Positions 53,108 through 64,000 of a stretch of 64,000 bases of DNA are shown in pieces. The position numbers and the translations under genes were made by a program. The notes under the pieces are model-generated. The model was not told the origin of the DNA. It did not search any database and worked only from the letters and a program-made list of their open reading frames with translations. The DNA is from Bacteroidetes bacterium GWF2_33_38 (GTDB lineage Bacteria > Bacteroidota > Bacteroidia > Bacteroidales > GWF2-33-38), in contig MEOF01000052.1 of assembly GCA_001769505.1 (NCBI GenBank), forward strand, positions 13,557 to 77,556. The letters are read 5' to 3'. Each line of letters opens with the position of its first letter. Positions within the stretch are counted from its first letter, which is position 1.

Positions 53108-53192
53108 GGAAAGATGGCAGAGTGGTCGAATGCGGCGGTCTTGAAAACCGTTGATCTTCACGGGTCCGGGGGTTCGAATCCCTCTCTTTCCG
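53108..53192 (+). tRNA. tRNA-Ser (anticodon UGA), class II with long variable arm; CCA not encoded
   Basis: Acceptor GGAAAGA/TCTTTCC plus discriminator G. Anticodon stem-loop GCGGT-CTTGAAA-ACCGT. Variable arm TGATCTTCACGGGTC. T-arm GGGGG-TTCGAAT-CCCTC. Confidence 0.9.
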
Positions 53193-54771
53193 CTGAAAGG
53201 GACTTCCCCAATAAAAAAGGGGAAGTCCCTTTTTTATTGGGGCTGCTTTCCCCGATGGTGTGGGCGATTGAGGCAAACACAGAATTTAGTTTTAATGTTC
53301 GAACTGCCCCAATTTTTCTATCATACACGATTCCTTCAGGAAACACCAATCTTTGTAATCTCTCTTTCAATACAACATTGCCGGAAGCCCACATTTCTTG
53401 CAGGTTGTCGCAAATATAAATTGCACGATTCAGTATGTTTTTATTGTTCGAAATGGGATTTTGACAATTGTTCAATTCTTTTATAATTTCAATTTGCTCG
53501 GCTTTATACTTTGAATAGAATCTCTCAAAAGTTTCTTTGCTCATTTCTCCCATAACGTAGAATTTTTCTTCAATCAAATCTAATTTCTTTGTAACTTCTG
53601 TTAGATTCGTTTTTATGGCTTTTTCTTTCTCCGTGTTGCTTTTAGTTAATTCATTGAAGGTGTTTTCCAATTGGAATAAAACAGCCTTTTTAAGGCTTTC
53701 TTTTAGCCGAAAATTAGCAAGCATTGAAATGAAAAGCTGATGCATATCCTTTGCGTTTTTATTACATTGACAACCTATTGTTCTACATTTATAATAATAG
53801 ATGTTTCTTGCTTTCATAAGGTAACCTGTAAATGGTTGTCCACATTCGGAACATTTCAGAAAAACCTTTAATGGAATATTATCATTTTCTGCTTTATGAG
53901 GAACTCCATACAGAGGAGATTCCGATATAATATTGTTAACTTTCAAAAAAGTTTCCTTGCTTACCATTGCTTCATGTGTTCCATCTACAACCTGTCCGTT
54001 TAGCAAGCCATGAGAAACTACTCCACAATAAAACGGATTGCAGAATATTTTGTGGAGCTTCTGTTTGTAAATGTTGGCTCCCATTGCACGTAGCTTCAGA
54101 ATAATATCGTCATTCTTCAATCCATTAAGTTTCCATTCAAAGGCATTTTTTAGCTTTTTACCCTCTTCGTTCAACACAATTTTTCTTGTGCCATTTATTT
54201 TAATTACATCGTATCCTTGTGGAGGTTGGGTTACCCATATTCCTTTTTTTAGTTTCTCAACCATTCCTGCTACAGCTTTTTGTTTGCGAAGCTGATTATC
54301 GTATTCCGAAAAAAGAAATTGAATATTCTGATGAAGTACTCCGCTTGGATTGCTTGTATCGGTTGGTTGAGTTACAGCAAAAACCGAAATTCCCTGCTTC
54401 TCCCTTAAATCAGTAACTATTTTAATGGCTGCTCCTCCGGTACGACTAAACCTGTCTAATGTATAAACCAATACTTGACTTATTTTTCCGTTTGATTTTT
54501 TTATAAACTCAAGCATTCGGTTAAATTCTTTTCTTCCATCGGTTTTAGCACTTTCATAAGTCCCCCCGAAATAAGCTACAATATTAAGATTATGCTTTTT
54601 TGAATATTCTTCAATCGCTTTTTTCTGGGTTTCAAGACTTAGGTTTTTGTCTGCCTGTTCTTTACTTGACACACGAGTATAAACGACTACATTGCCTGTA
54701 GTTACTCGTTTAACAATGGTAGGACTCTTTTTGCCGAACCTTTTGGCAAATGTTGCATCTGTTGTCATCAT
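53158..54771 (-). CDS. large serine recombinase (resolvase/invertase N-domain + recombinase domain + zinc ribbon)
   Basis: Catalytic Ser context VVVYTRVSSKEQ, ..YTLDRFSRTG.., and zinc ribbon CSECGQPF..YYKCRTIGCQC followed by a coiled-coil. The last ~30 codons read through the tRNA terminator and 35 nt of the tRNA gene. Confidence 0.9.
   Translation of the reverse strand: MMTTDATFAKRFGKKSPTIVKRVTTGNVVVYTRVSSKEQADKNLSLETQKKAIEEYSKKHNLNIVAYFGGTYESAKTDGRKEFNRMLEFIKKSNGKISQVLVYTLDRFSRTGGAAIKIVTDLREKQGISVFAVTQPTDTSNPSGVLHQNIQFLFSEYDNQLRKQKAVAGMVEKLKKGIWVTQPPQGYDVIKINGTRKIVLNEEGKKLKNAFEWKLNGLKNDDIILKLRAMGANIYKQKLHKIFCNPFYCGVVSHGLLNGQVVDGTHEAMVSKETFLKVNNIISESPLYGVPHKAENDNIPLKVFLKCSECGQPFTGYLMKARNIYYYKCRTIGCQCNKNAKDMHQLFISMLANFRLKESLKKAVLFQLENTFNELTKSNTEKEKAIKTNLTEVTKKLDLIEEKFYVMGEMSKETFERFYSKYKAEQIEIIKELNNCQNPISNNKNILNRAIYICDNLQEMWASGNVVLKERLQRLVFPEGIVYDRKIGAVRTLKLNSVFASIAHTIGESSPNKKGTSPFLLGKSLSAEREGFEPPDP
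53199..53235 (+). terminator. rho-independent terminator of tRNA-Ser
   Basis: gggacttcccc-aataaaaaa-ggggaagtccc (11-bp perfect stem) followed by TTTTTT. Confidence 0.8.
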
Positions 54772-55064
54772 GCTGCTATTTTTAAGTTGTTATTATATAT
54801 TATTGAATCATCGTCATTTTCCGGTTGAGTCAAGAAATCATAAATGATTGCACAAAAATTCTGAATAGAAAGAACAATTTCTTCTGCTTCAGAATCGGCA
54901 ATATCCTCTAAGCCTTCGAAAGTTTTTAATTTTTCGACAGTAAGGGATTCTTTTTCCGGATTGACACTTTTTCCACAAAAACTGTTTTCTGATTTTTCTA
55001 TGTTAGCTGTTAAGTTCATACTTCTGATTAGGTTAACAGTAATGCAATAATCGCTCCGTTCCAA
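54768..55064 (-). CDS. hypothetical acidic protein translationally coupled to the serine recombinase
   Basis: 98 aa. Its TGA stop overlaps the recombinase ATG (ATGA). No family recognised. Confidence 0.4.
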   Translation of the reverse strand: MERSDYCITVNLIRSMNLTANIEKSENSFCGKSVNPEKESLTVEKLKTFEGLEDIADSEAEEIVLSIQNFCAIIYDFLTQPENDDDSIIYNNNLKIAA

Positions 55065-55367
55065 TATTTTCGGTATGTTCGGGAATTTATTTCAAAGTAC
55101 CTCCTATTTCAAAGATTTATTGCATTTAACTGTATTGATTAATAATTAAATTTATTTAATGGCAGATTTTAACCGGAAAAATTTGAAATTTTCATAAAAA
55201 GAAACCATTGGGGACGATGGCTTTTTCATAAAAGGGACTGAATCCAAATTAGTCCAGTAAAATAAGCTCCATTTCAAATCAAAAGTAGAAAAGGCAAGAA
55301 TGATGATTTTCGGTTTATGCTCGATTATGTAGGGTTTTACCAAACAATTCCAAATTAGGGAGCGTTG

Positions 55368-55420
55368 TGTAGTTTTATGTAGCAAAATGTAGTTTTATGT
55401 AGAATTGTGTAGTTTTAAGT
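55368..55420. repeat. three direct repeats TGTAGTTTTA(T/A)GT at 20-bp spacing
   Basis: Copies start at 55368, 55388 and 55408. Confidence 0.8.
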
Positions 55421-55467
55421 TCCATTCTTTTATCTCCGGACAAATGGGTTTTATTCGTTAATAACAA

Positions 55468-55566
55468 GGAGACAATATGGTAATATTGGTGAGCATGTGG
55501 AGACAATGTGGTGTTTATATGGTGATGATGTGGGGGCAATGTGGTGTTGATGTGGTGATGATATGG
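55468..55566. repeat. three tandem ~31-34-bp units (GGAGACAATRTGGTG...), strongly G+T skewed, containing about 7 copies of ATGTGGTG-like octamers
   Basis: Units start at about 55468, 55499 and 55533. There are only 4 C in about 100 nt. Confidence 0.75.
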
Positions 55567-55962
55567 AATTACTCGGGTTTTTCTACCTTATTTCTAAAAT
55601 AACACCAATTTATTATAGGTTAAACTTGATAAATGATAATTTTTAAAAAAGAATTACAGTATTTGACATTTCAATTGATTTTCTAATTAATCACTAATAG
55701 AAATCTAATCATTGATTTTTATTGTTCTAATGTATTTCTAATAAAAGCCTAATATTATTCTTATATATCTCTAACTTATTTCTATTACTTTATTAGCGTG
55801 TATGTTTGTAATTCGCCTTAATGTAATGGCATATTAATCTGATAATTACACCAAAATATGTTTTTCAACTTGCAATGAATTGTAACGTACTAATTACCAA
55901 TAATAAATATAATAATATTGAATATAACAGTAAATTTATTTGCTCATATTGCAAGTTCAAAT

Positions 55963-55970
55963 TATCTTTG
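55963..55970 (+). promoter_or_regulatory. -7 promoter box (TATCTTTG = TAnnTTTG) for the XRE-ImmA gene, next to an operator-like inverted-repeat half-site
   Basis: The box lies 19 nt upstream of the ATG at 55989. The 10-bp inverted repeat is aacttgcaat (55867-55876) / attgcaagtt (55948-55957). Confidence 0.45.
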
Positions 55971-55988
55971 TGAAGAATAAAAATTGTT

Positions 55989-57044
55989 ATGAAAACTACT
56001 GAAAAAATAAATCCACAAATGGTAATTCTGGCGAGGGAATCAAGAGGAATCAGTCAGAAGGAGCTTGCCGATTTACTTGATATTTCAGCAGGTAAAGTTT
56101 GCCATGTTGAGCAGGATGCACAGACATTTAGCGACGTTGATTTTAATCGCCTTTGTCAGGTATTAAAATACCCAAAAAGTTTTTTTTATCAGCAAACCGA
56201 TGCTTTCTTGCCCACAATGGTTAATTTCAGAAAAAGATTGGTGGTTTCTCAACGGTTTATCATGCCAATTGAAGCACAAACCAATATTTTCAGGTTAAAT
56301 GTTGAGGCTCTTGCAAATGAAATAATATTACCAACGTTAAATATTCCTGAAATTAAAGAAACGAGCCCAATAGAAGTAGCTGACAAATTAAGAAAGCTAT
56401 GGAATATTCCCGATGGACCAATCGATAATTTAACAGAAATAGTTGAAAGTAACGGTATATTAATAGCGACTTTTGATTTTGGAACAGAAAGGGTGGACAG
56501 CAGAACAATTTTAACTTCCGGCAGGCATCCAATAATATTATTGAATAAAAAATCTCTTGGCGACAGAAGGCGTTTCAGTCTTGCATACGAGTTAGGGCAT
56601 ATATTAATGCATCTGTTTTATCCTGTTGAAATGGAAAGAGAAATAGGACACGAAGCCAATGTGTTTGCAGCAGCTTTACTAATGCAGGAATCTGAAATAA
56701 GAAAGGATTTTAATCAAGCGGACATAAATATACCTCGTTTATCAGTATTAAAACCCAAGTGGAAAGTTTCGATGCAGGCATTATTGTACAGATCTGATGA
56801 TTTGGGATATATTACTTATAATCACAAGCGATATTTGCTTTCAATGTTTAATCAAATGAAAATTCGCCGGAGAGAGCCAATTGAGCTGGATGTTCCAATT
56901 GAAAATCCAAATCTCCTTTCAAATTTAATGGAAGGATACAGAAACGAGAAAAATTTGTCGGTTAAGCAGATGGCTGACAAACTGTATCTTTTAAAGGATG
57001 ATTATATTGATAAATATGTAGCTGAAACAGAAAAACAATCCTAA
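55989..57044 (+). CDS. XRE-family HTH fused to an ImmA/IrrE (M78, COG2856) metallopeptidase-like domain
   Basis: N-terminal HTH (LARESRGISQKELADLLDISAGKVCHVEQD). The central motif FSLAYELGHILMH...EANVFAAALLM resembles ImmA/IrrE HExxH...E.eAN.FA..lLmP. Confidence 0.8.
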   Translation: MKTTEKINPQMVILARESRGISQKELADLLDISAGKVCHVEQDAQTFSDVDFNRLCQVLKYPKSFFYQQTDAFLPTMVNFRKRLVVSQRFIMPIEAQTNIFRLNVEALANEIILPTLNIPEIKETSPIEVADKLRKLWNIPDGPIDNLTEIVESNGILIATFDFGTERVDSRTILTSGRHPIILLNKKSLGDRRRFSLAYELGHILMHLFYPVEMEREIGHEANVFAAALLMQESEIRKDFNQADINIPRLSVLKPKWKVSMQALLYRSDDLGYITYNHKRYLLSMFNQMKIRRREPIELDVPIENPNLLSNLMEGYRNEKNLSVKQMADKLYLLKDDYIDKYVAETEKQS

Positions 57045-57054
57045 ACCCCATTAT

Positions 57055-57258
57055 ATGACCACAGAAATAAATAATACCATCCACCTTAAAGCATATTCAA
57101 TTGGCGAATTAGCCAAGATGTATGACATTAACTGGCGAACATTAAAAAAATGGATTGAACCTTTTGAATCTGAAGTTGGAAAGAGAAGGGGCAGGTTTTA
57201 CACAATTATTCAGGTTAAAGTTATTTTTGAAAAGTTGGGGATGCCTTCAATTGATTGA
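57055..57258 (+). CDS. small DUF4248-like helix-turn-helix protein
   Basis: 67 aa: YSIGELAKMY..TLKKWIEPF......FYTIIQVKVIFEKLGMP. This matches the recalled DUF4248 pattern (..ELA..Y....L..WI....tp.qV..If..LG.P). Confidence 0.5.
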   Translation: MTTEINNTIHLKAYSIGELAKMYDINWRTLKKWIEPFESEVGKRRGRFYTIIQVKVIFEKLGMPSID

Positions 57259-57279
57259 AATAATATTTTATAAACAATT

Positions 57280-57960
57280 ATGGATACGTCTGATAAAAAA
57301 CTTGGTGCTGAATATGCTTTAGAAAATGCAAAAAAACAATTCGAAGCAGCAGAATTAATTGCAGAAAAGAAGAATTATGGGCTTGCCTGTTCATTAATGG
57401 TACTATCCGCTGAAGAAGCACTTAAAGCTTTTGCTTTATTCGGAGATGATTTTTTGCCTGATTATAGCGGTATTGATTTTACAGAATTATTTAGCAGCCA
57501 TAATTATAAATTGAACCTTATAAGAAGTGCTATTGGTTTGAGAACCATAGTACAGACATTAAATAAAAATATCAATGAACCTGTGATAGAGAACATCGAA
57601 AAGCCGATAGATGAAATCATTGAAATTCGTAGCAAGGGTATTGATAATTTTGTCAATTGGGTTGAGAACGAGATTTCTTCAAAAAAAACAGAATTATCTT
57701 CACAACTTGGATGGTGGAAACAAGCAGAGGCTTTAAAAGAAGATGGTTTTTATATTAAGTACAATAACCAAGGATGGCATTCTCCCCTGAAAATCAAAAG
57801 AGCACGTTATGATAAAACCAAGAAGTATGTTAAAGATTTTATTGATATGATTGTTTTGATTACAACAGTTGATTTTGAGATAGAACCTGTTGCATCCATT
57901 TTTAATGATATAAAACAGAGATTTAACAATTTAAAGAAAAAATATGATAATAAAGGCTGA
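57280..57960 (+). CDS. AbiV-like (HEPN_AbiV) abortive-infection family protein
   Basis: N-terminal pattern ALENAKKQFEAAELIAEKKNYGLACSLMVLSAEEALKAFAL resembles the AbiV family signature (..Na..l..dA..L...g.y..A..la.la.EE.gKa). Confidence 0.55.
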   Translation: MDTSDKKLGAEYALENAKKQFEAAELIAEKKNYGLACSLMVLSAEEALKAFALFGDDFLPDYSGIDFTELFSSHNYKLNLIRSAIGLRTIVQTLNKNINEPVIENIEKPIDEIIEIRSKGIDNFVNWVENEISSKKTELSSQLGWWKQAEALKEDGFYIKYNNQGWHSPLKIKRARYDKTKKYVKDFIDMIVLITTVDFEIEPVASIFNDIKQRFNNLKKKYDNKG

Positions 57961-58654
57961 TTCTTACTTCAGGTACCCTCCATTGAATCTGAATCCTAAA
58001 CAGGTAATTGTTTTCAATGGAATTAGGTACAGCATTGATATTGTAGAAATAGCATATGAGCGTCTCTGCAAAAACTTATATGATTTTGTATATTCTGAAA
58101 ACAAGCCTTCATTTCCTGTGATATTTTCAGAATGTTGGACTATTATTAACAGTGCTACTATTTTTATCAATCTTTCAATCAGACATTTTAAAATAGATAA
58201 AGAAAATTCTATTTGGGATGGTATTCGTGAAATAAAGGAACTGAGAAATACTAATCAACATCTTGATGAAAGAATTAATGAGGTTTTACTTGAGAATAAC
58301 CTTCCTATTTACGGGGCATTATCTTGGTATTCACAGGAACATTTAGATGCAAAAGAAGGTGTAATTACGACTATCATTTCTGGGTCGTTCACTGGTGACA
58401 CAAACCATATTGTGCTAAATCCCGCTGGAAAAAAGCTTAAAAATACAATATCGGGTATTGAGTTTTCTACAACTGCAAGAACTAAGAATGGATTTGAGAT
58501 AATAAAGGTTGATTTGGAAAAAATAATCAATCAAATCAAGCATGTGGTTAATTATTTTGATAATCAATTGGTACCTCAATTAATTGATGTTGACATCACC
58601 GATAGATACAAAGGGGATTTAGTTATAAGCATGTATGTCAATAAATTAATATAA
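57944..58654 (+). CDS. hypothetical protein with a HEPN-like Rx4H motif
   Basis: 236 aa. Overlaps the upstream gene by 17 nt. Contains ..IKELRNTNQHLDERI.. (R-N-x3-H) in a helical context. Confidence 0.4.
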   Translation: MIIKADSYFRYPPLNLNPKQVIVFNGIRYSIDIVEIAYERLCKNLYDFVYSENKPSFPVIFSECWTIINSATIFINLSIRHFKIDKENSIWDGIREIKELRNTNQHLDERINEVLLENNLPIYGALSWYSQEHLDAKEGVITTIISGSFTGDTNHIVLNPAGKKLKNTISGIEFSTTARTKNGFEIIKVDLEKIINQIKHVVNYFDNQLVPQLIDVDITDRYKGDLVISMYVNKLI

Positions 58655-58672
58655 AAATAAAAATTCAATTAT

Positions 58673-59083
58673 ATGTCAAATTTTATTACAAGCATTTTAT
58701 TCGCTAAATCAATAAAAAAGCACAAAAATCAGTTGCAAAAATTAAATTCTCAAGTAGCTACTTTAAAAGATGATAGCAAAAAACTTTATGATAAAACTCA
58801 AGAAGTATTATTAGATATTGAATGTCCTAAGAATCTTTTGGCAGAGAATTCGACAACACATACTCTACTTGGAATTGAAAAAGATAAAAATGAGAACAAT
58901 GTCTTTGTTTTCATTAATGATAAATCTCTTTTTAAGAAATACTATAGTTCTGGAATTAATCACTTTGACATAGAATGCTACATTTCAGATAAAAGAGAAT
59001 ATCTTAATCGTCGCAGAGTACTTCATCTCATGGGAAAGTATAAAACTGAAAAGGAGATATTTGATTTACCTCACAATCACTAA
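58673..59083 (+). CDS. hypothetical protein (last gene of the island)
   Basis: 136 aa. Its last 6 codons and stop overlap the 3' end of the convergent T9SS gene. No family recognised. Confidence 0.35.
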   Translation: MSNFITSILFAKSIKKHKNQLQKLNSQVATLKDDSKKLYDKTQEVLLDIECPKNLLAENSTTHTLLGIEKDKNENNVFVFINDKSLFKKYYSSGINHFDIECYISDKREYLNRRRVLHLMGKYKTEKEIFDLPHNH

Positions 59084-60862
59084 CTTACCACCATCGGTCA
59101 ACTCTCCATTATTAACTATTTTATAATAATAAATTCCTTGCTTTAAAGCTGAAATGTCTATTAACTGTTTTTCTGTTTTTAGCTCTGTGGTTAATACTTC
59201 TTTGCCAAACAAATCATACACTTCGACTACGCTCAGTGTCCGATTATCGTTTGCCGGATACTGATTACTGATTATCGTTAACTGCTCACTTGCAGGATTC
59301 GGATAAATCGTAAATCGCAAATCGTAATTCGTAATTTCTTTAGTGCTTACATCCAAAAATACCGTAATCGTATAATACGCCGTATCGCTGCAATAATCAT
59401 TATTTGTAATTAGCTGTACTGTTTTAATTCCGGTGTGTGTGTAGCTGTGCTGTGGAAACTGCTCTGTACTTGTGATTGTATCGCCAAAATCCCATTGCCA
59501 GTTTGTGCCGAAGTTACTTATTATGCCAAATTGTACTGTTGCCCCTTCGGTTAAATAAACTGTATCGGAATCTGCTGTTATTTCTGAATTTACTGTATAG
59601 CAGCTATACGACCAGCAACCTTCATAAGTTGTAGTATCAATAGTGCAGGTATTACCCATACTATCGGTTTTTAGCAACCATAAATCGTTTTTGGCAGGAA
59701 GTGAATTATTTATTATGTAGCCTGTGGCGATAAACCCACCATCGTTGGTAAGATTTAAATCTTCTACATAGGTCTGTTTTGTACCACCATAGTAATTGAA
59801 ACTTTTTGACCAAAGAGTATCCCCTTGCATGTTAAATTTTAAAAGCCATACACGGCGACCATTTGGTGTGCCTGATAAATCTGCTTTACCTCCTGCTACA
59901 ATATAAGAACCGTCTGATAACTGACGCACTATTTTAAAATATTCATTTAATCCTGTTGCTCCAAATGTTTTACTCCATTGCTGATTACCAGAACTGTCGG
60001 TTTTTACAATATATCCGTTGTAATAATTATCTGTCATTTTTTTGTCCCCTACAATTATATATCCTTTATCAGATGTAGCAATTGTAAAACCACGATATTC
60101 TTCTGCTGTTGTACCAAATGATTTTTTCCATTCCTGATTTCCCAAACTATCGGTTTTTAACAGGAACATATCATTTGAACTTGTTGAAGGGTTATAATAA
60201 TCGCCCCCAATTATAAATCCTCCATCGGCGGTTAAATCTATTGATTTCAGATTATCATTGTAATTGGCTGCTCCGTATTCTCTTTGCCATTGTATATTGC
60301 CGAGACTGTCAGTTTTTATTAGAAAAACATTTGAATAAGTTTGAGTTGCATCTAAATTAATTCCACCAATAATAAAACCCCCATCGGAGGTTTGTTTGTG
60401 CATAAATCCGTGGTCGCTAACTCCACCTTCTATTGTTTTAAAAGTTACTGAATCGCCATTTTCATTTAATGTAAATAAAAAAGTATCTGTATCTATATTT
60501 ACAGTATCAGGAATATCCCCACAAACAGAATAATAATTATTTGGTAATTGAATTATACTATATCCATCTTCACCATAACCTTGATACCAATCATACATTT
60601 TTGTCCATGTTGTATCTCCTTTTAAATCAATTTTGACAAAAAGTATTGCATAATAGTCGCCATAAATAATTCCAGACGATATATAACCACTATCTGAAGT
60701 TTGAATTATTGACCAGCCTCCATTAACTTGATTATTATAATCAACAAGCCGATGAAAGGCATATTGTGATTTACTTATATTTACTATTGTAAAAAACAAT
60801 ATTAAAATTACTAAAGATTTTTTCATAAAATATTGAATTAAGAAAGGTAGCTTTATTTTCAT
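59066..60862 (-). CDS. T9SS cargo protein, paralog 1: beta-propeller-like repeats + PKD-like domain + CTD
   Basis: ~50-aa repeats (..DGGFIIGG.....LLKTDSLGNxxW..), a PKD-like segment (WQWDFGDTITSTEQFPQHSYTHTG) and a CTD (IYPNPASEQLTI..VYDLFGKEV..GIYYYKI). Confidence 0.75.
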   Translation of the reverse strand: MKIKLPFLIQYFMKKSLVILILFFTIVNISKSQYAFHRLVDYNNQVNGGWSIIQTSDSGYISSGIIYGDYYAILFVKIDLKGDTTWTKMYDWYQGYGEDGYSIIQLPNNYYSVCGDIPDTVNIDTDTFLFTLNENGDSVTFKTIEGGVSDHGFMHKQTSDGGFIIGGINLDATQTYSNVFLIKTDSLGNIQWQREYGAANYNDNLKSIDLTADGGFIIGGDYYNPSTSSNDMFLLKTDSLGNQEWKKSFGTTAEEYRGFTIATSDKGYIIVGDKKMTDNYYNGYIVKTDSSGNQQWSKTFGATGLNEYFKIVRQLSDGSYIVAGGKADLSGTPNGRRVWLLKFNMQGDTLWSKSFNYYGGTKQTYVEDLNLTNDGGFIATGYIINNSLPAKNDLWLLKTDSMGNTCTIDTTTYEGCWSYSCYTVNSEITADSDTVYLTEGATVQFGIISNFGTNWQWDFGDTITSTEQFPQHSYTHTGIKTVQLITNNDYCSDTAYYTITVFLDVSTKEITNYDLRFTIYPNPASEQLTIISNQYPANDNRTLSVVEVYDLFGKEVLTTELKTEKQLIDISALKQGIYYYKIVNNGELTDGGKLVIVR

Positions 60863-60878
60863 AAAGCTACCTTAAAAT

Positions 60879-61760
60879 TTATTTAATAATTACAAACTGA
60901 TTCTGATACACTATAACATTATTATCTTTCACAACATAATGATAAACTCCATTTTCTAACTCCTTAGTTTTGATTACAATTTTATTATCATTACCTGTCA
61001 GAGTATGCTCAAATACTTTTCTACTAATATTATCATATATTTCAATAATACTTCCTGCATAATTACTCGCATTATATTCAAATACAATATTGTCTGAGGC
61101 AGGATTAGGGTAAAGATTAAATTCATTACTATTGTAATAAACATTGTTTGTTGACAGAGTATTGTTATTTACTTTTAAGCTGCGTACTGTTGCTGTATTA
61201 AATTTCAAAACAGGGTATTCAAATTGCTCGTCAAACACCGTTTCCAAAACAGCCAAAGCACTAAACGCAGTTGCAGTATTTCCAGATGCAATTGTTCTGA
61301 TAGCTTGTTCCTGTTCCTGTGTCAATTCAAATATTGTTTTGTTCTGTTCTGCCAAATTAATCAATATTGTCATATATTCATAATATGCAACAGCATCTTC
61401 TACCTTTTCGCTTTCTGCTGTATTCAATACTTCTACCAAAGCATCGGCACAGGCTGCATAATCATTATTCGACAGGTAAATTTCTGACAATAGTTTTTTA
61501 TCTTCGTAATTATCCGAAGTAATTAAAATACTCATTGCCTGTGCCGAATCACCATTAGTAAAGTAATAATCTACAGCAAAGTTATTCAATTGATTTATCT
61601 GTGCTTCATTATAAGCTATTTCTTTTTCGAGTGTTTCTCGTGCAGAGACTCCAATTGTCTGAACCACTGATTTACAAAGTTGATTTGTCTGATTTGCATG
61701 ATTTATACCATACAACCATACCATTATACACAAAATGATCATAGTTTTCATAAAAATCAT
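60879..61760 (-). CDS. T9SS-CTD protein, paralog 1 of the partner gene
   Basis: Helical N-terminal half. CTD reads LYPNPASDNIVFEY..IEIYDNISRKV..NGVYHYVV. Confidence 0.65.
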   Translation of the reverse strand: MIFMKTMIILCIMVWLYGINHANQTNQLCKSVVQTIGVSARETLEKEIAYNEAQINQLNNFAVDYYFTNGDSAQAMSILITSDNYEDKKLLSEIYLSNNDYAACADALVEVLNTAESEKVEDAVAYYEYMTILINLAEQNKTIFELTQEQEQAIRTIASGNTATAFSALAVLETVFDEQFEYPVLKFNTATVRSLKVNNNTLSTNNVYYNSNEFNLYPNPASDNIVFEYNASNYAGSIIEIYDNISRKVFEHTLTGNDNKIVIKTKELENGVYHYVVKDNNVIVYQNQFVIIK

Positions 61761-61780
61761 TCAAAAATCAGCGGTAAAGA

Positions 61781-63541
61781 CTACCTCACAATCACTAACT
61801 TACCACCATCGGTCAACTCTCCATTATTAACTATTTTATAATAATAAATTCCTTGCTTTAAAGCTGAAATGTCTATTAACTGTTTTTCTGTTATTAGTTC
61901 GGTTGTTAATACTTCTTTTCCAAACAAATTGTAAATTATTAGATTGCTTCGTGCCTCGCAATGACGTGCTGATGGGCTGCATGTTACCGTTAACTGCTCA
62001 CTTGCAGGATTCGGAAAAATTGTAAAATGGGCGTTTCGGCTACGCTCAACGACCATTTGAGAGCTTACATCCAAAAATACCGTAATTGTATAATACGCCG
62101 TATCACTGCAATAATCATTATTGGTGATTAGCTGCACGGTTTTAGTCCCGGTGTGTGTGTAGCTGTGCTGTGGAAACTGCTCTGTACTTGTGATTGTATC
62201 GCCAAAATCCCATTGCCAGCTTGTGCCAAAGTTACTAATTGTACCAAATTGTACTGTTGCTCCTTGTGTTAAGTAAACTGTATCGGAATCGGCTGTTATT
62301 TCTGAATTTACTGTATAGCAGCTATACGACCAGCAACCTTCATAAGTTGTAGTATCAATAGTGCAGGTATTACCCATACTATCGGTTTTTAAAAGCCACA
62401 AATCGTTTTTGGCAGGTAATGAGTTATTTATAATATAGCCTGTGGCTATAAATCCGCCATCGTTGGTGAGGTTTAAGTCTTCCATATAGGTATGTTTTGA
62501 ACCTCCATAGTAGTTATAAGTTTTTGACCATACTGTATCTCCTTGCTGATTGAGCTTTAATAACCATGCTTTCACTCCATTAGGTGTACCTGACAAATCA
62601 GGTTTCGTACCGCCTATAATATATGAACCATCAGGTAATTGACGCACCTGGTGAAAATAATCATTAACTCCTGGAGTATTTATTATTTTACTCCATTGTG
62701 TATTTCCTAAACTGTCTGTTTTTATAATATAGCCGTTAAATGTATTATCTGTTGTTTTTCTGCCTCCTACAATAATAAAACCTTTATCTAATGTTGATAT
62801 TGCAAATCCATCTCCTTCATCTACTGTAGTGCCGTAAGATTTTTCCCATTCCTGATTACCAAGACTATCAGTCTTTAACAAGAACATATCATACGAATTT
62901 GTTGACGGGTTTTCAAAATCACCACCAATTATATAGCCTCCATCGGGTGTTAAATCAATAGATTTTAGATAATCGTTATAGTTTGCTGCTCCGTATTCTT
63001 GTTGCCATTGTATATTTCCTAAACTATCAGCTTTTATTAAAAAAACCTGTGTATAGGTTGCTGTTGTATCATAATTGTAGCCACCAATTATAAAACCACC
63101 ATCTGTGGTTTGTTTGTGCATAATATGTCTGTCGTTAAAGCCCTCGTCAATTGGTTTTAACCATTCAACACTACCATTATTATCTAATTTTAATAAAAAC
63201 CCACTGGACGCTCCTTCTGTTGAATCAGCGGCAAATCCACTTATAATAAAGCTACCATCGCTTTTCTGAATAACTGATTTAGGTATATCTCCACCAACAG
63301 TGTAGAAATCGTGCATTATTGACCATGTTGTATCTCCATATTCATTTAATTTCAATATGTACATACCATCATAGTTTTCTAATGAACTACCTACAACAAT
63401 AAAAGTATTGTCTGATGCTTGAATAACTGAACGACCAGCATCATAAAAATAATTCTCAAACCCATACAATTTATGAAATGTAAATTGGGCACTACTAACC
63501 TTAAAAAAAGAAAGCAATAATATACAAAAAATAATTCTCAT
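61781..63541 (-). CDS. T9SS cargo protein, paralog 2 (beta-propeller-like repeats + PKD-like + CTD)
   Basis: Same architecture as 59066-60862. The C-terminal ~200 aa are nearly identical and the N-terminal half is diverged. Confidence 0.75.
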   Translation of the reverse strand: MRIIFCILLLSFFKVSSAQFTFHKLYGFENYFYDAGRSVIQASDNTFIVVGSSLENYDGMYILKLNEYGDTTWSIMHDFYTVGGDIPKSVIQKSDGSFIISGFAADSTEGASSGFLLKLDNNGSVEWLKPIDEGFNDRHIMHKQTTDGGFIIGGYNYDTTATYTQVFLIKADSLGNIQWQQEYGAANYNDYLKSIDLTPDGGYIIGGDFENPSTNSYDMFLLKTDSLGNQEWEKSYGTTVDEGDGFAISTLDKGFIIVGGRKTTDNTFNGYIIKTDSLGNTQWSKIINTPGVNDYFHQVRQLPDGSYIIGGTKPDLSGTPNGVKAWLLKLNQQGDTVWSKTYNYYGGSKHTYMEDLNLTNDGGFIATGYIINNSLPAKNDLWLLKTDSMGNTCTIDTTTYEGCWSYSCYTVNSEITADSDTVYLTQGATVQFGTISNFGTSWQWDFGDTITSTEQFPQHSYTHTGTKTVQLITNNDYCSDTAYYTITVFLDVSSQMVVERSRNAHFTIFPNPASEQLTVTCSPSARHCEARSNLIIYNLFGKEVLTTELITEKQLIDISALKQGIYYYKIVNNGELTDGGKLVIVR

Positions 63542-63589
63542 AATCTTATTAAATTAAAAAAGTAGCCTTTTGGAAAGGCTACTTTTAAG

Positions 63590-64000
63590 TTATTTTATAA
63601 TTACAAATTGATTTTGATACACTATAACATTATTATCTTTCACAACATAATGATAAACTCCATTCTCTAATTTTTTTGTATTAAATTCAATTTTGTTATC
63701 ATTGCCTGAAAGATTATATTCAATTACTTTTCTACTTAAATTATCATAAATTTCAATAATGCTTCCTGCATAATTACTCGCATTATATTCAAATACAATA
63801 TTGTCTGAGGCAGGATTAGGATAAAGTTTAAATTCATTATTATTGTAATAAACATTATTTGTTGGCAGAGTATTGTTATTTACTTTTAAGCTACGTGCTG
63901 TTGCTGTATTAAATTTCAAAACAGGATAATCAAATTGCTCGTCAAATACCGTTTCCAAAACCGCCAAAGCACTAAACGCAGTAGCCGTATTCCCTGATGC
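63590..64000 (-). CDS. T9SS-CTD protein, paralog 2 of the partner gene; 5' end beyond the window
   Basis: The frame stays open to the window edge. It aligns with the C-terminal part of 60879-61760 (AVLETVFDEQF.YPVLKFNTA..). Confidence 0.65.
   Translation of the reverse strand, partial: ASGNTATAFSALAVLETVFDEQFDYPVLKFNTATARSLKVNNNTLPTNNVYYNNNEFKLYPNPASDNIVFEYNASNYAGSIIEIYDNLSRKVIEYNLSGNDNKIEFNTKKLENGVYHYVVKDNNVIVYQNQFVIIK

Follow-up and report, generated by a model that had tools for sequence, protein, structure and literature searches.

An RmrA-like regulator gene heads a candidate toxin or abortive-infection operon on a small putative island of a groundwater Bacteroidales

What is the role of five tightly packed genes that lie next to a serine recombinase gene in a Bacteroidales genome? 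The genes occupy positions 55989–59083 of a 64,000-nt stretch of contig MEOF01000052.1 (the window) from Bacteroidetes bacterium GWF2_33_38, a metagenome-assembled genome (MAG) whose source habitat is groundwater. A previous annotation made from the letters of the window, in the following called the sequence-only reading, had proposed an effector module of two HEPN proteins under a protease-gated XRE switch, carried by a mobile element. We put the probability at roughly one half that the cassette is a regulated toxin or abortive-infection operon on a mini-island, in which the products of the first two genes (g1 and g2) would control RNase-type effectors encoded by the third and fourth (g3 and g4), with g4 able to function independently. 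This reading is supported because g1 is RmrA-like, g3 scores above the cut-offs for AbiV, g4 carries an invariant motif and homologues of g4 have defence genes as neighbors.

The cassette itself is well defined. Listing of the open reading frames (ORFs) reproduced five co-oriented genes on the forward strand: g1 (55989–57044, 351 aa), g2 (57055–57258, 67 aa), g3 (57280–57960, 226 aa), g4 (57944–58654, 236 aa) and g5 (58673–59083, 136 aa). The intervals between them are 10, 21, −17 and 18 nt, as described before, with the start of g4 overlapping the end of g3 by 17 nt. The two peptides that had been quoted were also recovered, ENAKKQFEAAELIAEKKNYGLACSLMVLSAEEALKAFAL in g3 and KELRNTNQHLDERI at residues 98–111 of g4 (nt 58235–58276). 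The ORFs exceed what is expected by chance for three reasons: GC skew is positive across 55–59 kb only and negative in the flanks, where genes lie on the reverse strand; by our own estimate chance would produce an open frame of 136 codons from roughly 1e-5 of starts when GC is about 30%; and in six assemblies from this organism, independent of one another, gene callers predicted the identical five genes.

The product of g1 begins with an XRE-type helix-turn-helix (HTH) domain (aa 14–70, Pfam HTH_31/HTH_3), followed by a Peptidase_M78 (ImmA/IrrE) domain (aa 153–268) and a C-terminal region. Its description as an XRE-ImmA fusion therefore holds and can be made more specific: g1 matches 14 PADLOC models of RmrA with E-values from 3.5e-57 to 4e-32 over residues 5–344, the best being PDLC03954, in which residues 5–344 align to model positions 8–361 of 380. 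Further matches were obtained to phrog_2439 of the PHROGs (7.7e-82), to the PADLOC models capP (1.2e-15) and capH (1.8e-3) and to the NCBIfam repressor/antitoxin spr1629 (132 bits, under the equivalog cut-off of 335). Homologues of g1 occur in 283 plasmid records, with many mobilisable or conjugative plasmids among them, and in 28 phage records; in some phages a g1-like protein bears the annotation cI-like repressor.

RmrA is the antitoxin of RosmerTA, a phage-defensive system that combines the highly variable toxin RmrT with an HTH/Zn-peptidase antitoxin (Millman 2022, Ernits 2023). COG2856-Xre fusions, equivalent to RosmerTA, have been described in operons with RelE and PIN RNase toxins (Makarova 2009). 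An XRE-ImmA protein paired with a toxin is thus a described theme, which the sequence-only reading missed when it found no known system in this combination of genes. With RosmerTA the locus shares the full RmrA architecture of g1 with its 14 model matches, the location on a mobile element and the presence of putative RNase toxins in the operon of g1; partners of RmrA are highly variable.

A second resemblance is to the regulator pairs CapH/CapP and ImmR/ImmA of ICEBs1. Besides its matches to capP and capH, g1 is the first gene ahead of putative defence genes. We found two homologues of g1 immediately upstream of nucleotidyltransferase/SAVED or ThiF operons that resemble cyclic oligonucleotide-based anti-phage signalling systems (CBASS), one on a Hymenobacter plasmid (L031:3016–6981) and one on an Acinetobacter plasmid (L038:1992–4897). 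An XRE-ImmA fusion therefore also occurs as first gene ahead of a defence operon, which suggests that such fused proteins can behave like CapH/CapP regulators. In contrast to CapH/CapP and ImmR/ImmA, HTH and protease are fused in g1 and the catalytic motif is degenerate. The genes downstream are of HEPN type here, whereas CapH/CapP precede genes for cGAS/DncV-like nucleotidyltransferases (CD-NTases).

The third gene encodes a member of the AbiV family, as had been claimed: g3 clears both the Pfam model PF18728 (HEPN_AbiV; cut-off 27.1) with 66.8 bits (E 3.2e-18, residues 10–179) and the NCBIfam model TIGR04498 (cut-off 27) with 49.3 bits. The AbiV protein of lactococci, a HEPN RNase toxin that degrades rRNA, is a dimer and needs R91 and H97 of the sequence 91-RNHKSKH-97 (Zhu 2024). 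It is inhibited by the upstream abiV2 RNA and thus forms a toxin–antitoxin system of type III (Haaber 2008, Zhu 2024). The present locus is similar in that g3 passes both curated family models and in that an ORF of about 200 nt (g2, 204 nt) lies in the position of abiV2, 21 nt before g3. It differs in that g2 has the look of a genuine HTH protein in a region without excess RNA structure, and in that g3 is very divergent and is one of five genes in an operon that includes a protein regulator. A word-based search of 5.8 billion proteins with g3 returned g3 itself and no relatives; the word-based searches with g3 and g4 gave self matches only (source names DDX39_11990 and DDX39_11995). On plasmids and phages no tblastn match to g3 was obtained. 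Judged by these comparisons g3 is extremely divergent. A single-sequence AlphaFold2 (AF2) model of g3 reached a mean predicted local distance difference test (pLDDT) of 39.3 and was unusable.

At the place of the lactococcal motif g3 reads S-S-H74-N-Y-K77-L-N-L80, with H74-N-Y-K77 at nt 57499–57510. Other copies of the locus vary within this gene. L004 carries an L80H exchange (57518) in the H74-N-Y-K-L-N-L80 stretch, which by eye is the counterpart of lactococcal RNHKSKH. In L006 a TT deletion at 57318–57319 shifts the start of g3, resulting in a protein of 214 aa without the initial 12 residues. At the same site L003 contains a scaffold gap and 33 foreign nt; an apparent 43-nt insertion in L003 was rejected as an allele, being a scaffold gap with Ns rather than a clean allele.

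The fourth gene had been described as matching nothing recognisable, and indeed g4 has no match in Pfam or NCBIfam and no meaningful one in PADLOC or PHROG. It is nevertheless a member of a sizeable, unnamed family: an exhaustive phmmer search, counted as cluster representatives at 50% identity, yielded at least 509 clusters at E ≤ 1e-3 and 151 at E ≤ 1e-10, nearly all of them 225–260 aa in length. The R-N-x3-H motif noticed before (R101-N-T-N-Q-H106, nt 58244–58261) is real and invariant across this family. In an alignment of 60 sequences (A1) R101, H106, G124 and W128 are invariant, in a further 97 sequences (A6) R and H alone, and each of the 165 family members of at least 114 aa carries R-[NDH]-x3-H. 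No other polar residues of the family are invariant than those of this signature.

Modelled on the alignment with AF2, g4 gave a confident structure (pLDDT 94.5, predicted template modelling score (pTM) 0.90), a helical bundle joined by a beta domain, with helices at residues 18–50, 57–82, 96–105 and 107–118, a four-stranded sheet at 125–190 and a last helix at 191–212. The predicted secondary structure puts the motif where the third helix (96–105) ends on its C-terminal side, at the break between residues 105 and 106. The Rx4-6H motif of HEPN domains is placed at the same helix end (Anantharaman 2013). We consider it likely that g4 belongs to the HEPN superfamily. With the stand-alone HEPN-type Abi and toxin RNases (Apea-like, AbiU2, AbiD/F, AbiJ; Anantharaman 2013) it shares the R-[NDH]-x3-H signature, here predicted at the end of helix 3, a size near 230 aa, its frequent occurrence as a stand-alone gene and neighbors from defence islands. 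It differs from them by the additional four-stranded beta domain (about 125–190) before the last helix, by the absence of a Pfam, NCBIfam or PADLOC model for the family and by the lack of a significant Foldseek match to solved HEPN proteins. One long family member (P0119 or P0138 in A6) contains tetratricopeptide repeats (TPR_1, E 3.4e-63) and recalls HEPN-TPR fusions. With one exception, a tblastn match on a Gemmatirosa plasmid (Gemmatimonadota), all g4-family loci inspected are from Bacteroidota; this is also the single match of g4 on plasmids, and no tblastn match was found in phages.

To see g4 in other gene contexts, about 26 further loci with a g4 homologue were inspected, and relatives of g1, g3 and g5 were sought there by tblastn or phmmer. 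No relative of AbiV, RmrA or g5 adjoins the g4 homologue in any of these loci, so a conserved g3–g4 pairing is not borne out. Most homologues of g4 are solitary, including the closest ones (37–46% identity). One lies beside a tyrosine integrase (L025) and others between housekeeping genes (L026–L029). Several adjoin defence genes: GajB of Gabija (4e-123; placed in L021 by ORF sizes and UvrD domains), TIR_2 (L014), HD-PycTM (L022), Mrr with ParDE (L007) and UvrD helicases (L011, L013). Judged by these contexts, the g4 family is an autonomous, mobile and often defence-associated module whose coupling to AbiV is idiosyncratic to this locus; it is regarded as autonomous because its members usually stand alone.

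Three of the loci have a gene arrangement of their own. In Flavobacterium amnicola (L041:52–4726) a g4 homologue of 45% identity adjoins a Thoeris-like set of SIR2_2/STALD, ThsB_TIR and TIR_2, and a 343-aa unannotated gene lies directly 5’ of it. In a Crocinitomicaceae MAG (L024:327–2307) the homologue is followed, with an overlap of 4 nt at its end, by a gene for a HEPN_AbiU2 protein (E 3.7e-9), and this in turn by one for a 189-aa protein without assigned function (1-nt overlap). In L039:1–8628 the homologue P0009 (39%) is part of a tightly overlapping five-gene operon encoding proteins of 1351, 246, 260, 403 and 627 aa, for which no Pfam match is on record. This operon may be an undescribed multi-gene system.

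For the two small genes the evidence is less specific. Over residues 12–40 g2 reaches E-values of about 1e-3 to three HTH families in Pfam (MerR/DUF4248/HTH_28-like), all below threshold. The naming of g2 as DUF4248-like could not be upheld, since its 19.3 bits compare with a cut-off of 27 and the E-value of 0.0011 equals that for MerR_1. An abiV2-like RNA antitoxin beneath g2 was considered and found no support in folding: the region showed no excess RNA structure (z = −0.43). Rfam found the tRNA only. Because of this folding value and the HTH signatures g2 is treated here as a small, putatively DNA-binding HTH protein and not as an RNA. It has no tblastn match on plasmids. The product of g5, like g4 not recognised by the sequence-only reading, matches no family in Pfam, PADLOC, NCBIfam or PHROGs. 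Its N-terminus is helical, and no relative of it was detected, including beside g4 homologues. An accessory role or one in immunity may be its function.

Taken as a regulated operon, the cassette would work as follows. The g1 protein, perhaps together with g2, would bind the 0.9-kb region upstream and thereby restrain the operon, the toxins or both. Phage infection or DNA damage would lift this control. The products of g3 and g4 would then act as dimeric, metal-independent RNases, and their activity would arrest the infected cell. Here g4 would be an autonomous module co-opted into the operon and no obligate partner of g3. The parts are mostly of known kinds, and a role as anti-phage or toxin operon is plausible on the strength of their sequences.

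The position of the cassette on a serine-recombinase element, also proposed before, is supported by the genes on its left. A tRNA-Ser(UGA) gene (53108–53193, forward strand; ARAGORN, Rfam tRNA 59.4 bits) is followed by its terminator hairpin (53196–53242, perfect inverted repeats I11 and I24); together they are likely the left flank and attachment region of an island. The adjoining gene for a large serine recombinase (53158–54771, reverse strand) encodes the domain combination expected of an integrative element, namely Resolvase (Pfam, 1.6e-26), Recombinase (7.7e-10) and a Zn-ribbon (Zn_ribbon_recom, 6.6e-4). The final 28 or so codons of its ORF cross the tRNA-Ser terminator into the 3’ half of the tRNA gene. 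On its 5’ side, and overlapping it by 4 nt, lies an ORF of 98 aa (54768–55064, reverse strand) without a family match in Pfam, NCBIfam or PHROG.

Between these genes and the divergent cassette a gene-free control region of 0.9 kb (55065–55988) contains three tandem arrays: 55368–55417 (TGTAGTTTTA, period 10/20), 55468–55567 (TGGTGnnnATG, period 11/33, about 7–9 copies) and 55694–55784 (period 44). These could be operators, iterons or sites for recombination directionality. No Rfam match was found in the region, the tRNA being the sole Rfam find. A Bacteroidetes-type promoter element TAnnTTTG is located at 55963–55970, 19 nt 5’ of the ATG of g1, and a second one at 57222–57229. Since four such elements occur in 4.1 kb and by our own estimate about three are expected by chance, the promoter call at 55963–55970 is weak. 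A scan for sigma-70 promoters, which is ill-suited to Bacteroidota, gave counts at chance level.

The Logan contig SRR6488110_196 (L005, 5886 nt) is identical to window positions 53211–59096, and its two termini do not overlap. These features point to a branching of the assembly graph at the ends of the island, at about 53241 and 59066 if k = 31, and to filled and empty alleles in one sample. Near these ends we found just a 9-nt inverted match. On the right the stop codon of g5 lies 18 nt within a convergent gene for a protein sorted by the type IX secretion system (T9SS; 59066–60862, reverse strand), close to the inferred junction. The ends of both the recombinase ORF and the g5 ORF appear to be supplied by the flanking chromosome, as would be expected if integration created them. 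We regard the region as the cargo of an integrative island of about 5.9 kb, inserted just past the tRNA-Ser terminator. When viral contigs were searched for related loci with g1, g3 or the recombinase singly, none was found.

To the right of the island, genes for T9SS-sorted proteins (Por_Secre_tail, PKD) form paralogous sets in tandem (window 59066–63967), with blocks of 82–91% identity (59067–60405 to 61782–63123, and 60831–61652 to the next copy). It is in these blocks that all single-nucleotide polymorphisms (SNPs) distinguishing the assemblies cluster, probably as a result of cross-assembly of paralogues. They are uninformative on the spread of the island.

Several observations weigh against reading the cassette as a regulated operon of RNase effectors. 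One group concerns g1. Where four of four relatives (31–36% identity, alignment A4) have HELGH, g1 has YELGH at aa 200–204 (nt 56586–56600; the codon of Y200 was confirmed as TAC), so that the first zinc ligand is replaced by tyrosine. A working protease gate as proposed by the sequence-only reading is therefore doubtful; control by g1 is probably independent of normal zinc-protease chemistry, as far as this motif tells. Furthermore, in seven of eight inspected relatives g1 is coupled to an upstream gene of about 200–250 aa that has no counterpart here. This gene overlaps or abuts the g1 homologue on Hymenobacter, Roseicitreum and Polaromonas plasmids and in Acinetobacter, Gordonia, Escherichia and Clostridioides phages. 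Survival of an upstream toxin as a pseudogene was considered and discarded, because the 920 nt before g1 contain no ORF and no tblastn remnant. Compared with RosmerTA, in which toxin precedes antitoxin in these seven of eight relatives, the order is thus reversed, and g1 heads four downstream genes instead of being paired with one. No PADLOC RmrT model matches g2–g5 at E ≤ 1, which is weak evidence since RmrT families are diverse. Lacking a recognisable RmrT, with reversed gene order and with YExxH in place of HExxH, the cassette is not a canonical RosmerTA system.

A second group concerns the effectors. The R-x4-6-H motif, which the earlier claim of a HEPN RNase implied and of which R and H are essential in lactococcal AbiV, occurs nowhere in g3, and no PADLOC model matches g3. 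In the AbiV family, however, the motif is not conserved and an alternative histidine may serve (Anantharaman 2013; Zhu 2024); its absence therefore leaves the family membership of g3 intact and makes its activity uncertain. For g4 the comparison with established HEPN families by profile and structure gave no significant similarity. Foldseek of the g4 model against PDB and BFVD returned nothing at E < 1e-3, with the HEPN toxin 7bxo_G listed at a probability of 0.33. A profile search of PDB was empty and a sequence search of solved structures gave nothing relevant. Alignment of the g4 profile to g3 and to an AbiU2-like protein with hhalign gave no signal. In Pfam, HEPN_Apea appeared faintly in 5 of 157 family members with a best E of 0.05 (3 of 60 in A1, where it is the most recurrent hint, and 2 of 97 in A6, where HEF_HK appears in 4 of 97), and HEPN_Cthe2314 faintly in one. 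The check on the HEPN fold thus produced a confident model of g4 that has no significant match among known HEPN proteins, next to an unusable model of g3, and the two grounds for the HEPN status of g4 are its motif and its topology. The survey of gene neighborhoods points both ways: several g4 homologues lie beside defence genes, and in about half of the loci the surroundings are housekeeping genes. Finally, sequence patterns of an empty site or of a circular (attP) junction were not found in metagenomes of the Joint Genome Institute (JGI), and as neither turned up, mobility of the island is something we infer.

The alternative that survives best, although we consider it doubtful, is that g1 and g2 are the life-cycle switch of the island itself, comparable to a fused ImmR/ImmA of ICEBs1 or to a phage repressor. 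Acting on the divergent promoter of the recombinase, they would govern excision and transfer. The genes g3–g5 would be unrelated passengers that work singly, g3 and g4 as one-gene defences of AbiV-like and HEPN-like type, and nothing functional would tie them to the regulator. This would agree with the position of g1 at the head of the rightward operon, separated from the recombinase genes by the repeat-rich 0.9 kb, with the control of ICEBs1 by ImmA/ImmR as the founding example of the family and with the cI-like annotations in some phages. The overwhelmingly solitary occurrence of g4 homologues would fit as well, and the TAnnTTTG at 57222–57229 could drive g3–g5 separately. However, the best matches of g1 are full-length RmrA antitoxin models, and in its relatives the coupling is, with few exceptions, to a small partner gene and not to recombinases. 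In addition, the gaps of 10 and 21 nt and the 17-nt overlap favor a single unit of transcription and translation, and a degenerate YELGH fits poorly with a switch that is based on cleavage.

We regard it as improbable that g3 and g4 are the obligate subunits of a hetero-oligomeric HEPN machine, a new type of two-HEPN effector in which the degenerate AbiV-like subunit regulates or completes the active site of the R-N-x3-H subunit, or the reverse. The idea draws on the overlap of the two genes, on the presence of the motif in g4 and not in g3, on the dimeric nature of HEPN RNases with their composite sites and on the pairing of a g4 homologue with HEPN_AbiU2 in Crocinitomicaceae, where a second Abi-type HEPN recurs once. 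Against this, the family is paired with another HEPN protein in just two of about 27 loci, the closest relatives of g4 stand alone and the searches around g4 homologues detected no relative of g3. An obligate machine of this kind is less likely than effectors that are stacked in one operon. There is likewise only a slim chance that the g4 family is a new HEPN-type effector acting as modular partner of sometimes degenerate Abi-type HEPNs (AbiV-like here, AbiU2-like in Crocinitomicaceae), the resulting hetero-oligomeric RNase being gated by an RmrA-like pseudo-protease regulator with YELGH; this would amount to a multi-component HEPN system not yet described. Least probable is a plain addiction module that stabilises the island by post-segregational killing and has no role in phage defence: toxin–antitoxin-like parts on a mobile element and the frequency of g1-type genes on plasmids (283 records) would suit it, but AbiV and RosmerTA are phage-defensive in experiments and g4 homologues adjoin Thoeris, Gabija, TIR and PycTM genes, quite apart from the fact that addiction and defence are compatible roles.

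Defence systems of Bacteroidota are poorly charted. If the proteins are active, g4 would add a sizeable family without a model in the 2025 copy of Pfam, in NCBIfam or in PADLOC v2.0.0 to the candidate RNase effectors of defence. The locus would also present an RmrA-type regulator with a degenerate zinc site ahead of HEPN effectors instead of behind a single toxin, a wiring that would bear on how RosmerTA antitoxins sense infection. As a serine-recombinase island of 5.9 kb devoted to defence cargo it would be very small and easily cloned. Current ideas are not overturned by this, since both the parts and their logic are familiar; the g4 family and the unusual wiring of RmrA are concrete leads.

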